Source: Candidatus Babeliales bacterium (GTDB taxonomy: Bacteria > Babelota > Babeliae > Babelales > JANWKD01). From it: 64,000 nucleotides of DNA. The translations under genes were made by a program, and so were the position numbers. Location of the stretch: positions 256,001 through 320,000 of the forward strand of contig CAVRJM010000001.1 of NCBI GenBank assembly GCA_963722075.1, in the 5' to 3' direction. The notes under the pieces are model-generated. The model worked only from the letters and a program-made list of their open reading frames with translations, ran no database searches and was not told the DNA's origin. Every line of letters starts with the position of its first letter. The stretch's first letter is position 1. Below are positions 12,461 to 16,461 of the stretch, piece by piece.

Positions 12461-13552
12461 ATGAATAAATCAGAAAATAACAAAGAGCAATCACATCTTT
12501 TTTCTGGCAACATTTTCATTTTTCAGGCATTTGATATTGGGGAAGATATAAACTTAGAGAAAGTTCGTCAATCCGAAAATGTGTTAGTACGGCCATTAAC
12601 CTTATCAAAATATTTTAAAAATTATCATACGCCGCTTCCTATTGATTTACCGCATCCGCATGAAAGCTCTAAATTTATTAGCAGTAATTTACACAGCTTT
12701 GGGGTGATTTCATTAGCCTATAAAGTTCCGTTTCATGATACTCTAGAAAATTTGCGCAAAAAATTAATTACTATTGATGGAGAGTTTCAAGAACAAGGCG
12801 TTATTGATGCTAGTTCTATTTTTAAAGTAATAAAAAAATATGTAAAACATGAACGTTTTTTCCATTTACGCACCTCGTATGTGGTAATTCAAGTTGACCC
12901 GCGTCCGGATGCAATTTCAGTGGTTGGATTTAAAGATAGGTATGGCAGCTTTATTGCCTCACTAGTACGTTTTGAAACTGAAAGTTTAAGTGAATATCAA
13001 AAAGGTGAAATTCTTGATTCGGCATTAGGATATTATCGCGAAGATCTTTTTATCATCGATACCCAAGCAGCATTTGTGTATGATGATGAATATGAAGATA
13101 TTTTAGATCTCTTTGAATTTGCTAATATACAGCAACTAGAATTACAGTATTTTGATCGTATGCTTGATCAGCAACTTAATGTGGTATACCAACGCGAAGT
13201 GCGCACACTGCCGCTCAAAGCATATATTCCATTAATTGGCTCATTGCCGCGTGATTTGATTGGCTCATTGGGCATTTTAAAAGTAGAAATTTCGGTGATT
13301 ATTGAGCGTCTTGAAAGTAGTATTAAAATTGCCGGCGAAGAATTCATTTCAGAATTATACTCGGTATTAGTGGATAAATTAGATTTAAAAAATTGGAAAG
13401 AATCGATTAATACTAAATTAGAAATTATTAAGGATATGAACTCCTTTCACCAAAATAAAGTTGATTCAATTCGTGAAGATTTCTTATCGATTCTGATTAT
13501 TGTGTTAATTTTTATTGAATTAGTGGTTGGTATTTTAAGTTATTTAAAATAA
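12461..13552 (+). CDS. RMD1/DUF155-like protein with C-terminal TM helix
   Basis: AFDIGEDINL, ELQYFDRMLD, W..SI..KL and C-terminal LSILIIVLIFIE pattern typical of the RMD1/YagE-like family. Confidence 0.6.
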   Translation: MNKSENNKEQSHLFSGNIFIFQAFDIGEDINLEKVRQSENVLVRPLTLSKYFKNYHTPLPIDLPHPHESSKFISSNLHSFGVISLAYKVPFHDTLENLRKKLITIDGEFQEQGVIDASSIFKVIKKYVKHERFFHLRTSYVVIQVDPRPDAISVVGFKDRYGSFIASLVRFETESLSEYQKGEILDSALGYYREDLFIIDTQAAFVYDDEYEDILDLFEFANIQQLELQYFDRMLDQQLNVVYQREVRTLPLKAYIPLIGSLPRDLIGSLGILKVEISVIIERLESSIKIAGEEFISELYSVLVDKLDLKNWKESINTKLEIIKDMNSFHQNKVDSIREDFLSILIIVLIFIELVVGILSYLK

Positions 13553-13559
13553 GGGATTT

Positions 13560-13820
13560 ATGAAAAAGTTATTTGCGATGACATTTTTAGCGACGTTTTC
13601 TTTGAGTGCTATGAATAAAAGTGAGGAAAAACAAGTATTAAATGTTGCAGTAGTTGCTGCTCAGAGTAATATTCGACCGGCACAGCATTCATTTCTTCCC
13701 GTTCGGCCACCATTTCAAAAAGCACCTCTTGATGGTGTTAATCCGCGTGAAGATCAATCACATTTGTTTTTATCTAAAAAAACGAAGCAAGAGAATAATC
13801 AAAAAAACACTGATTCGTAA
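13560..13820 (+). CDS. Small secreted hypothetical protein
   Basis: AAGGGA RBS; LSA|MNKS. Confidence 0.65.
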   Translation: MKKLFAMTFLATFSLSAMNKSEEKQVLNVAVVAAQSNIRPAQHSFLPVRPPFQKAPLDGVNPREDQSHLFLSKKTKQENNQKNTDS

Positions 13821-13893
13821 ATTAATTAAGACGGCGATACTTTTAGGGTTTCAAGGTATTTTACTCCAAGCTGAAGAACATTGAAGTTAAGAG

Positions 13894-13925
13894 GTCGTCG
13901 TTGCGAGCCTGCGAAGCAATCCAGG
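13894..13925 (+). repeat. REP-like palindrome (CGTC/TGTC-type, family A variant)
   Basis: GTCGTTGCGAGCCTGCGAAGCAATCCAG; near-identical reverse copy at 45984-46014. Confidence 0.75.
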
Positions 13926-13952
13926 CTATTGAATCTAATCTGAATTCTTCAA

Positions 13953-14545
13953 GTAAGGTATTTTTCTCGCCAAAAATACCTTACCTAAAAAAGCGCCACC
14001 ATGCTGGTGGATCCGTCTACGCTTATCCACGCCTTCCGGCTTGGCATCCAGCCGTCGCTCTTTGAGCTATGGCGGAGTAAACAGCTACGCCGGACAAGTC
14101 TGCACTATCACTCGTGTATGCACCACACGTGATTAATGCTATGCATTAACCCTTCGGGTGCACGACGCATTACCGGACTTTAATTTATTCAACTATTCCA
14201 CTTTTGATCTAATCCATAAAGAAAAAATAGCAATTACGATAATACCGTCATTCCGTTCTATCGTTGCAAGGTGTGGCGGAATAAAGCGCGTTCCTCGTCG
14301 AAAGTAAAGCTTCGACGGATAGGGAACTACTTCAGCCGTAGCTGGTAAAGCGAAGGCTGGAAACAATGGATAAAATCAAATGGCCTTGAAGCAAAACCGT
14401 TGAAGGGTCTGAAGCACATCGTTAGATGTGCGAGGGCCCGCCTTTTTTGCGATAGAGAGATAAATAAGAGACCCTCTCTTATTTGCCCTTGTATTGAAAA
14501 TATTGGGCAAGCAATATTTTCATACCCGGCCGGTATTAGGCCAAT
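13953..14545. ncRNA. Candidate structured non-coding RNA region or palindrome cluster of unknown class
   Basis: At least 10 hairpins in a GC-enriched intergenic region; cUUCGg and GNRA-containing loops; G-U pairs favouring the + strand in 14250-14440. No known family recognised. Confidence 0.4.
14009..14095 (-). repeat. Family B hairpin repeat with a second family B unit nested inside
   Basis: Near reverse complement of 3171-3222, with an extra insert containing TCCAGCCGTCGC..GCTATGGCGGA (14047-14076). Confidence 0.75.
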
Positions 14546-14585
14546 AGAAAAATATGATTTTTTATGTGAATAGTTTAAAAAGCAA

Positions 14586-15068
14586 TTACTGAGCAATGCT
14601 AACGCGCGCGGGGCGTAATAACTGGCCTTTAAATAAATACCCATTTTGCAATACTGCTACAATATGACCAGCAGTAAGAGGCGATTGCACGGTCATTATC
14701 GATTCATGTAATTCCGGATTTAATTCGTCATTTGACGAAACTTTTATCGTTTCAATGCCAACTTTTTCTAGATATTTCTGTAACTCTTTATGAACTAATT
14801 GGAATCCTTTAAACCAAACTGCATCAGATTCATTTTTTGGGGTATGTTGTTCAATAGCACGATTAAAATCATCAACAAAATTAAGAAGCGGCAGCAATAG
14901 TTCCATTTGTGCTACACGCGACCATTGCTGGCGTTCTTTTTCTTGTCTTTTTTTAAAATTATCAAAATCCGCAACAAGATGCGTATATTTTGTTTTTATT
15001 TCCATTAATTGGGTCTGGCACTGATGCAATTCACCAGTATTTTGTTCTTCGTGATGCGCCTTATCCAT
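14586..15068 (-). CDS. grpE: Nucleotide exchange factor GrpE
   Basis: ADFDNFKKR, LL..VDDFNRA, NPELHES, LQNGY..GQLLRPARV; AAGG RBS before ATG 15068. Confidence 0.93.
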   Translation of the reverse strand: MDKAHHEEQNTGELHQCQTQLMEIKTKYTHLVADFDNFKKRQEKERQQWSRVAQMELLLPLLNFVDDFNRAIEQHTPKNESDAVWFKGFQLVHKELQKYLEKVGIETIKVSSNDELNPELHESIMTVQSPLTAGHIVAVLQNGYLFKGQLLRPARVSIAQ

Positions 15069-15195
15069 GATTTTAACCTTTATGAACTTATGGTAATAGT
15101 TTATAGTATAAAACATTATACCATAATGATTATAACTAACAAGACGCATTAATTGACCTACGAGCTTTGAGTGGTAAATTTGAAAATAGGAAATT

Positions 15196-16461
15196 ATGAA
15201 TAGCAATAAATTAAGATGGCTTTTTTTATTATTTTTATCATATACCAGTATTTATACCATTGATAATCCGCATTTTTATCGTGCTAATTTCTTCTGGGGA
15301 GAGCCTCGTTTTGAGGAACCATGGCTCAGCACGTTTGAAATAACCTTTGGCGGGGGCAGTACTAAAAAAGCACGAAATAAAAAAGGCGAAAAAACAGATT
15401 TATTAAATATTTATGGGTTACAAAATATGCAAGCGCTTGCGCAAGGGGTTCCAAACCTTGATAGCAGTAATCCATTGGAGGCCATTCTTATTGATTTGGC
15501 GGCTCTTCCAGCACGCGATAATTTTGGCAAAGTTCGTTTTAAAGGGGAATTTGATATAGAGGAATTGGTATTAAATGGGTTTCAAAATATAAAAAACGGA
15601 TTTTTTTTGCAATGTTACTTACCCATTAGAAGTTTACATATAAATAACATTCATTTTATTGATGAATCTCCTGCTGACGATATTTTTCCTAATCGAAATA
15701 CCCCACAATGGCTTAGCTTTTTGAGTAATGTTACTACTATTTTATCGCAATTTAACCGTTCTATTGATAAAGTGAGTGAGACCGGAATTGGGGATCTTTC
15801 GCTTTTAATTGGATGGGCTCGTAATTATCAAGAGACCTGTTATATAGATTATTGTGATGTTGATGCCAAAATAGGAATATTATTTCCGACCGCAAAAAAA
15901 CAAAGTATTAGAAATCCCTTTAGCATTCCTTTAGGATATAATGGCTTTTATGGATTACCATTTAAATTTGATTGTTCTATTGGTTATTGGGAATGGCTAA
16001 CGGCAGGGTTTCATATCGGTGCACTTTTTTTATTTGAGCGTGAAAAGTTGCTTCCACTTAAAACGGCTCCTGACCAAAATGGTTTCATATTTTTAGCCCA
16101 AGGAAAAGCAAAAGTTGATCCTGGTACCTATTGGGAGTTATCCGGGTACGTTAAGGCGGATCATTTTTTTAAGGGACTTTCGTTGCTCATTGGCTACTGC
16201 TATACGCAAAAAGATGCTGATTGTATTGTACCATTAGATATGGAAGTTTTTAATCCAATTATTGTTAATACTGATCAGCGATTTAAATCATGGAATATGC
16301 AGGTGATCCACTGGATTATTGAATATGATTTTTCAAAGAAGCCTACTGATCTAAAGCCGCGTGTAGGTATTTTTTCTAACGTCTTGGTGGGAGGAAAACG
16401 AGTATTTAATACCAGTATTATTGGGCCATTTTTGGGGTTTGATGTTTCTTGGTGTTTTTAA
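15196..16461 (+). CDS. Putative outer-membrane beta-barrel protein
   Basis: Signal peptide, alternating amphipathic strands, C-terminal aromatic beta-signal-like GFDVSWCF. Confidence 0.55.
   Translation: MNSNKLRWLFLLFLSYTSIYTIDNPHFYRANFFWGEPRFEEPWLSTFEITFGGGSTKKARNKKGEKTDLLNIYGLQNMQALAQGVPNLDSSNPLEAILIDLAALPARDNFGKVRFKGEFDIEELVLNGFQNIKNGFFLQCYLPIRSLHINNIHFIDESPADDIFPNRNTPQWLSFLSNVTTILSQFNRSIDKVSETGIGDLSLLIGWARNYQETCYIDYCDVDAKIGILFPTAKKQSIRNPFSIPLGYNGFYGLPFKFDCSIGYWEWLTAGFHIGALFLFEREKLLPLKTAPDQNGFIFLAQGKAKVDPGTYWELSGYVKADHFFKGLSLLIGYCYTQKDADCIVPLDMEVFNPIIVNTDQRFKSWNMQVIHWIIEYDFSKKPTDLKPRVGIFSNVLVGGKRVFNTSIIGPFLGFDVSWCF

Follow-up and report, generated by a model that had tools for sequence, protein, structure and literature searches.

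A hairpin-dense spacer in a Babeliales genome as a probable nested repeat element with a conserved, pseudoknotted end module

Introduction

Several kinds of small repeats and element-borne RNAs resemble the locus described here. MITEs occur in intracellular bacteria, the Rickettsia palindromic elements being an example, and the Correia elements of Neisseria are of the same kind. In the REP doublet/RAYT and IS200/IS605 systems, hairpins are recognised as single strands and inverted doublets are found. Pseudoknotted scaffolds are known from the omega-RNAs of TnpB/IscB elements, which include the Rfam family HEARO.

A further described family is that of the CGTC-tagged REPs (Di Nocera, De Gregorio and Rocco 2013, PMC3733652). 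According to the available part of that article, these begin with CGTC (or TGTC/CCTC) and end in CCA, and their stem of 8-9 bp starts with two A-T pairs and closes a loop of 4-5 nt. As for larger elements, the one proposed here resembles the Rickettsia palindromic elements, the Correia elements and the QMITEs of Coxiella (PMC5896051) in being non-autonomous, a few hundred nucleotides long and bounded by inverted repeats, dispersed in spacers, mutually nested and able to carry terminators. It differs from such MITEs in two respects: neither a target-site duplication nor a parent insertion sequence turned up, and in place of plain terminal inverted repeats it has end modules that fold locally, covary and are strand-specific.

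The Dependentiae are uncultured or poorly studied intracellular bacteria. Our literature searches on repeats or MITEs of Dependentiae or Babeliales, and on MITEs with pseudoknots, returned nothing relevant. Here, we analyse a long, hairpin-rich spacer from a member of this group and propose, with fair confidence and from sequence comparison, that it is a single composite, non-autonomous and partly decayed element of the MITE/REP type, in which repeats are nested within repeats.

Results

A structured spacer without a known RNA family

The source genome measures 1.47 Mb, has a GC content of 34.7% and belongs to an amoeba-associated bacterium of the Babeliales (Dependentiae). The window, a stretch of 64,000 nucleotides of this genome, contains a spacer between two convergent genes, an 86-aa ORF on the plus strand (13560-13820) and grpE on the minus strand (14586-15206). 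An earlier note, made from the sequence alone, had described a hairpin-dense non-coding island in this spacer, and all the stems that it listed are present where it had placed them. These are a perfect 13-bp stem (13953-13965/13972-13984), the pair CCACCA/TGGTGG (13995-14010), the pair TGCAC/GTGCA (14101-05/14158-62), two long-range arms (14203-16 and 14367-80), a nested hairpin (14405-14439) followed by a T6 run (14443-48), and two further stems at 14462-71/14475-84 and 14495-14505/14512-22. The note had also seen no credible ORF in the spacer; indeed, none of the spacer ORFs matched a Pfam family. A check of coding potential gave the same picture, with no Pfam match for the island ORFs and with indels between island copies that are not multiples of three. 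Upstream of the spacer, the 363-aa ORF (12461-13552) adjoins lepA in relatives too, at 73-74% identity, and has no Pfam family, and the 86-aa ORF that lies 3' of it belongs to no family and was not found in the spacers of relatives.

The hairpin density of the island is above chance. On the plus strand, 13890-14550 folds at -220.2 kcal/mol, against -173.4 +/- 7.4 kcal/mol for dinucleotide shuffles (z -6.36), and on the minus strand at -224.3 against -182.1 +/- 7.5 (z -5.63); none of the 20 shuffles equalled the native folding on either strand. The mismatches in the right half had been read as G-U pairs on the plus strand, and the folding energies agree: the segment 14225-14365 reaches -44.7 kcal/mol on the plus strand and -36.5 on the minus strand, about 8 kcal/mol better on plus, and the hairpin at 14400-14450 likewise gains 8 kcal/mol on plus (-23.0 versus -15.0). 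No family of Rfam 15, with 6S, tmRNA, RNase P, OLE, ROOL, GOLLD and HEARO among those covered, reached its gathering threshold in the region, and when matches with E-values up to 10 were admitted, the sole match was P26, which at 13.5 bits against a gathering score of 36 bits (E 8.3) is noise. A search for sigma-70-like promoters in 13500-14700 found none, compared with 2.9 expected from shuffled sequences.

The island is built from dispersed repeats

A BLAST search of the island and its surroundings (13821-14585) against its own genome returned 89 HSPs, and when 13866-14555 was divided into 15-nt bins, every bin recurred at least once elsewhere in the genome. The earlier statement that repeat families explain only part of the island is thus wrong. 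All of the hairpins belong to dispersed multi-copy repeats, an outcome that the earlier note had itself named as refuting its reading. Genome-wide, 16.5% of spacer bases have two or more other copies, compared with 3.9% of bases in crudely called ORFs.

From left to right, the element would consist of a solitary repeat termed REP_A (13896..13925, plus strand; about 30 nt), a decayed inverted copy of a longer module, R1' (13929..14020, minus strand), an 88-nt insertion (14012..14099, plus strand), a second module, R2 (14108..14184, plus strand), an interior (14185..14362, plus strand) with an AT-rich stretch and three hairpins, two of which start with CGTC, a right subterminal block (14363..14451, plus strand) that holds the nested hairpin and its T6 run, and the intact module R1 (14452..14554, plus strand; 106.8 bits). 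Further copies lie elsewhere in the genome. Copy 2 is 86% identical and covers 13907-14011 and 14100-14578 (the latter at contig C1:1365348-1365831), copy 3 (contig C1:209687-210047) is 84% identical and covers 14213-14559, and a fourth, partial copy lies at contig C1:1036248-1036518. The sequences flanking these copies are unrelated and the ends of the copies are sharp. The composite as a whole is present in its own genome in only two full and two partial copies, a number that counts against reading it as an element.

The block 13944-14011, which contains the 13-bp stem and CCACCA/TGGTGG, has four other copies with compensatory changes in the stem. In copy 2, position 14011 directly abuts 14100; the 88 nt between them are missing, and 14012-14099 is therefore a later insertion in the window copy. 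The insertion comprises two CGTC-headed units, C1 (14012-14046) and C2 (14046-14099), which have about 8 and about 15 other copies in the genome, respectively, and the same unit recurs in reversed orientation and at another point in the fourth copy. Between genera, C1 is 94-100% identical over 26-36 nt, while the GrpE proteins of the same genera are only about 50% identical. The interior has only three copies, at 84-86% identity, and could not be aligned with the copies in a related genome, G004; across the three sequences, 7 of the 70 predicted pairs are compensatory. The long-range stem that was described as enclosing the interior hairpins has both of its arms in the window, but conservation across copies was not borne out: in copy 2 it is disturbed by a mismatch and a 5-nt insertion, the 5' arm is missing from copy 3, and no partner is seen in any of the three G004 copies.

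Copies 2 and 3 retain the hairpin at 14405-14439 (-23.0 kcal/mol, z -4.5) and the T6 directly after it, and one outer pair of the hairpin shows a compensatory change. A GC-rich hairpin followed by a T-run looks like an intrinsic terminator on the plus strand, and as a predicted terminator it would probably end transcription of the upstream lepA-orf363-orf86 genes. It was missing from the output of a simple terminator scan. All three copies in the genome have a co-oriented gene upstream, and the G004 copies carry a different hairpin and T-run at the same position.

With inverted repeats at both ends (R1' and R1), a span of about 630 nt and no transposase ORF, the island has the makings of a MITE. 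It is solely from the dispersal of the copies that we infer mobility; the copy ends show no target-site duplication, and neither an empty site nor a strain polymorphism came to light. Contigs from four DNA runs were short fragments broken at repeats, or other copies. The element in the window is probably immobile, because its left R1 is decayed and its right-hand REP_A is missing.

REP_A and the CGTC-tagged units

An inverted REP_A lies just beyond the far end of composite copies 2, 3 and 4. Genome-wide, REP_A has 74 copies, all of which begin with CGTC or TGTC and end in CCAG (rarely CTAG or CAAG), and 42 of them form 21 inverted pairs that are 137-359 bp apart. These pairs share AT-rich inner flanks and make up a second MITE-like family with REP_A ends.

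Several features are shared with CGTC-tagged REPs as described in the available part of PMC3733652. REP_A, C1, C2 and two interior hairpins start with CGTC or TGTC, and REP_A ends in CCA(G). Like those repeats, the units are short, GC-rich, intergenic and present in high copy number, they often form head-to-head inverted pairs, they lie mostly in 3' or convergent spacers, and no dedicated transposase is known for them. Unlike those repeats, REP_A lacks a stem of 8-9 bp that begins with A-T pairs, and inspection of the alignment revealed only about 4-5 contiguous pairs. R1 (104 nt) and R2 (77 nt) are far longer than the repeats in that part of the article and have multiple hairpins, with a pseudoknot in R1; neither of them meets the definition of a REP.

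The modules R1 and R2 are conserved as folds

The R1 model, derived from a 20-copy alignment (A2), has three hairpins: H6 (14462-71/14475-84), H7 (14496-14505/14512-21) and H8 (14522-26/14532-36). In those 20 copies, RNAalifold found compensatory changes at 6 of the 11 pairs of H7. A count over 59 distinct copies found pairing in 92.1% of 1371 cells, covariation at 24 of the 25 stem pairs and double changes in 285 cells (80.8 +/- 6.5 in shuffles, with 0 of 500 reaching the observed value), counts that lean towards structure because the underlying alignment (A3) is fitted to the model and 20 of its 65 rows also built it. In slid controls, only 37-56% of the cells were paired.

A pseudoknot, which is absent from the model, joins the five bases just 5' of H7 (14484-88) to the H7 loop (14505-09). 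It is paired in 94.3% of 283 cells, and 4 of its 5 pairs covary, with 12 double-change cells compared with 1.0 +/- 0.9 in shuffles. A second sample, of metagenome copies that had not been selected by pattern, supplied further variants. Because differing variants occur within one genome, the pseudoknot argues for direct base pairing rather than for a protein half-site.

Wobble pairs in R1 are strongly strand-biased. When the strand of each copy was set by asymmetric conserved bases, and not by wobble, G-U pairs outnumbered A-C mismatches by 54 to 7, and in the second (metagenome) sample by 76 to 16. R2 served as an internal control for this bias and gave 14 to 17. The excess of G-U over A-C in R1 means, therefore, that selection acts on R1 as a folded single strand with one fixed polarity, which reads outward at both ends of the element.

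The left end was recognisable as R1 by its parts. The 13-bp stem (13953-13984) aligns to H7 and CCACCA/TGGTGG (13995-14010) to H6, with a T6 run at 13987-92; the match of R1' to the R1 model on the minus strand is weak (15.9 bits, E 8.7e-4; cmsearch with filters off). The stretch 13929-14020 folds at -31.2 kcal/mol on the minus strand and -23.8 on the plus strand. With an inverted R1' at the left and R1 at the right, the two outer stems, which the earlier note had described as having their loops on opposite strands, can therefore be read as the two ends of one element.

What had been called a multibranch domain is R2 (84.4 bits at 14108-14184), a hairpin of four tiers whose flanks are highly conserved and whose inner stem (14133-39/14143-49) varies. 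Of its 20 pairs, 16 covary; 90.7% of 680 cells are paired and 81 show double changes, against 19.6 +/- 3.3 in shuffles (reached by 0 of 500). The cUUCGg loop proposed within this domain did not survive, since covariation assigns its bases to an internal loop and to the 3' arm of a 6-bp helix that is conserved. R2 matches 5 of 151 genomes, essentially only the family to which the window belongs, with 4 copies in this genome and 14, 6 and 16 copies in three relatives, and its exact pattern among 185,579 species genomes recovered only six G004 copies. In at least 11 places in G001, G003 and G004, R2 directly abuts an inverted R1; inverted R1 plus R2 therefore make up a fixed left end.

The earlier proposal that the structure is under selection thus gains strong support from covariation in two modules. 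Strand specificity applies to part of the structure, namely R1 and the segments that fold better on one strand, and does not extend to R2, which has no strand bias. R1 and R2 are absent from Rfam and from the literature searched, and the conserved, knotted fold of the end modules has apparently not been described before.

R1 as a possible element end or functional RNA

Of 151 Babeliales genomes, 22 have a match to R1, with 1-26 copies each, and these represent 8 of 21 families; in a second sample of the phylum, R1 matches 23 of 151. Its exact core pattern occurs in at least 118 metagenome stretches. Many copies are paired. Genome G148 has 26 hits, of which 22 make up 11 pairs arranged as (-)...(+) at distances of 320-420 nt; five inverted pairs occur in G003, others are found in G001, G004 and G037, and metagenome loci add about 20 more. 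Inverted pairs are often 230-420 nt apart, and both R1 copies of a pair have their 3' ends directed outward.

These folds may also be explained in another way, by which the main role of R1, and perhaps of R2, would be that of a functional RNA motif that binds a protein, processes itself or protects a 3' end, and which the repeats carry along. A pseudoknot combined with strand-specific wobble is commoner in functional RNA than in transposon ends, which counts against the mobile-end reading, and the covarying pseudoknot, the conserved unpaired bases and the tolerance of G-U on one strand only are what a functional RNA would show. G-T is, however, also the best-tolerated mismatch in single-stranded DNA. 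The position of R1 in G148 suits an RNA motif as well, as it is subterminal rather than terminal there, with conserved sequence running 60-70 nt further to a short inverted repeat. Set against this is the usual arrangement of R1 as inverted pairs around a variable interior, which constraints of transposition would produce.

Gene context points both ways. The neighbours of R1 are housekeeping genes, and in a small sample the gene on its 5' side was co-oriented in 14 of 21 cases, placing R1 downstream of a gene in the sense direction, as expected of an RNA motif. A larger sample, drawn from exact-pattern classes in which paired and single copies are mixed since many "single" copies have a partner, gave 23 co-oriented and 21 opposed genes on the 5' side, while the gene on the 3' side faced R1 in 37 cases versus 15. 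In the window, moreover, the hairpin and T6 run end 4 nt before R1, and the absence of a promoter-like site likewise speaks against a functional transcript. We draw no conclusion from the orientation of R1 relative to genes. On balance, we consider it rather unlikely that R1 is first of all a functional RNA, and favour the composite repeat element.

The composite in related genomes

BLAST matches to the island were found in 6 of 41 relatives, and the modules are present in four of the five genomes of the family, the four being at least 90% complete. The three copies in G004 have the same module order as the window, with an H2-like stem, R2, an interior, a hairpin with a T-run and H6-H7-H8. The order of inverted R1, R2, hairpin with T-run and R1 thus recurs in another genus.

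This recurrence bears on a second rival, namely that the spacer was copied by segmental duplication or gene conversion, without transposition, and that its modules are ordinary REP clusters that recombine in a BIME-like manner. The modules do occur in many different combinations in relatives, and neither target duplications nor a transposase were found, as such recombination would have it. Unrelated flanks and sharp ends of the copies argue against it, however, as do the same ordered composite in another genus and the inverted R1 pairs in many families, and we judge this course of events improbable.

The orthologous locus is recognisable in two relatives. In G003 and G004, grpE has kept lepA-orf363 (73-82% protein identity) as its neighbour; nothing in the intervening DNA resembles 13821-14585, and other CGTC- or TGTC-headed palindromes and small ORFs lie there instead. 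The homologue search beside grpE that the earlier note had suggested therefore came out negative for the island in both genomes. In G001, grpE has other neighbours. The stretches from orf363 to grpE in G004 and G003 (loci L041 and L042) contain extra minus-strand ORFs of 73-160 aa before grpE that are lacking in the window genome, and the neighbourhood has therefore been rearranged.

That the island is a large structured ncRNA specific to this locus, or two divergent RNAs of 200-300 nt from the AT-rich centre, as first proposed, is very improbable, for although T6 runs follow hairpins outward on both strands, the interior folds better on plus and the left block on minus, and Rfam offers no match, every part belongs to a dispersed repeat, comparison with copy 2 shows the island to be interrupted by the 88-nt repeat insertion, the long-range closing stem is not conserved, the centre has no promoter-like site, the interior pairs show so few compensatory changes across three copies, and the orthologous spacers of relatives lack the island, leaving no conservation at the locus that an RNA gene would show.

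Search for a mobilising enzyme

A composite repeat element of this kind would depend on an enzyme supplied in trans. We propose that R1 would act in cis as an end signal, recognised as a folded single-stranded nucleic acid, and that the enzyme acting on it may be absent from these genomes or present in unrecognised form. Given a composite element, and by analogy with REP doublets/RAYT and the ends of IS200/IS605, we put this role for R1 at slightly below an even chance.

No transposase family was found among 50 ORFs flanking R1 at 21 loci, one of which had a Phage_integrase domain, and the 228 ORFs in 79 metagenome loci yielded only ankyrin, epimerase, Mrr-like and Rho proteins as recurrent neighbours. 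Between or beside R1 pairs, too, the search for a transposase found none. Wider R1 pairs were considered as autonomous elements and rejected: a 4.3-kb pair in G078 encloses a transketolase gene and a 2-kb pair at locus L119 an RNase T-like gene. The IS110 and Tn5-like genes of G004 belong to separate insertion sequences with their own ends (the search for Tn5 domains was run without a positive control). One of them, a 313-aa IS110-family transposase ORF with the domains DEDD_Tnp_IS110 and Transposase_20 (L016:471-1412, minus strand), lies inside another G004 composite copy; the window's own genome has no IS110 and no homologue of this ORF.

The resemblance to REP doublets/RAYT and to IS200/IS605 ends lies in the conserved unpaired bases beside covarying stems, in the inverted doublets, and in an insertion that apparently took place without target duplication (one case, 14012-14099). 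Unlike in those systems, the R1-rich genomes G148 and G094 have no Y1 transposase (Y1_Tnp), for which reason we rejected a link between the two, and the IS200 ends of the family exclude R1. The family's IS200 is a 571-bp unit with its own ends that stops 154 nt short of the one nearby R1. The window's own genome has a single IS200-type Y1 transposase gene, outside the window (G000:C1:156495-156854), which has hairpins of its own on its flanks rather than the dispersed repeats. Relatives have 5-11 IS200-type Y1 copies, three of them in tandem in G003 (G003:C1:1253004-1254495).

R1 also has something in common with omega-RNA, a pseudoknotted scaffold at the end of an element that reads outward into flanking DNA. 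It differs in having no Rfam match and in lying at both ends of the element, and there is no TnpB domain in five genomes. The zinc ribbon of TnpB (PF07282) had hits in none of these five, compared with 8 of 14 control genomes, and a TnpB/omega-RNA link was dropped.

Discussion

The covariation, pseudoknot and strand-specific wobble of R1 are unusually clear, and make it a good candidate either for a new RNA motif or for a transposon end of a new kind. We suggest tentatively, and as a possibility rather than an expectation, that R1 represents a new, Babeliales-specific class of motif of about 100 nt, built as hairpin, pseudoknotted hairpin and hairpin with fixed polarity, which would be either a functional RNA or the folded single-strand end signal of a family of mobile elements whose enzyme lies outside the recognised transposase families. 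The motif is abundant in genomes and metagenomes alike. If R1 does function as RNA, it could be, for example, a self-processing or protein-recruiting element. For annotation, the spacer is better labelled as nested repeats than as a novel RNA gene, as are many other long spacers in these genomes.

In a relative, the modules are themselves targets for insertion sequences. A 1.48-kb IS4/Tn5-like insertion sequence, with a 462-aa ORF that has a hit to the Tn5 dimerisation domain, is found in G004 at loci L030 (G004:C6:393000-396000), L031, L032 and L033. At these four loci it occupies the same 10-bp site at the 5' edge of R2, in both orientations and with the site duplicated, and insertion into this repeat appears to be site-specific. 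The genomes of the relatives measure 0.8-1.9 Mb, and such nesting bears on how small intracellular genomes tolerate mobile DNA.
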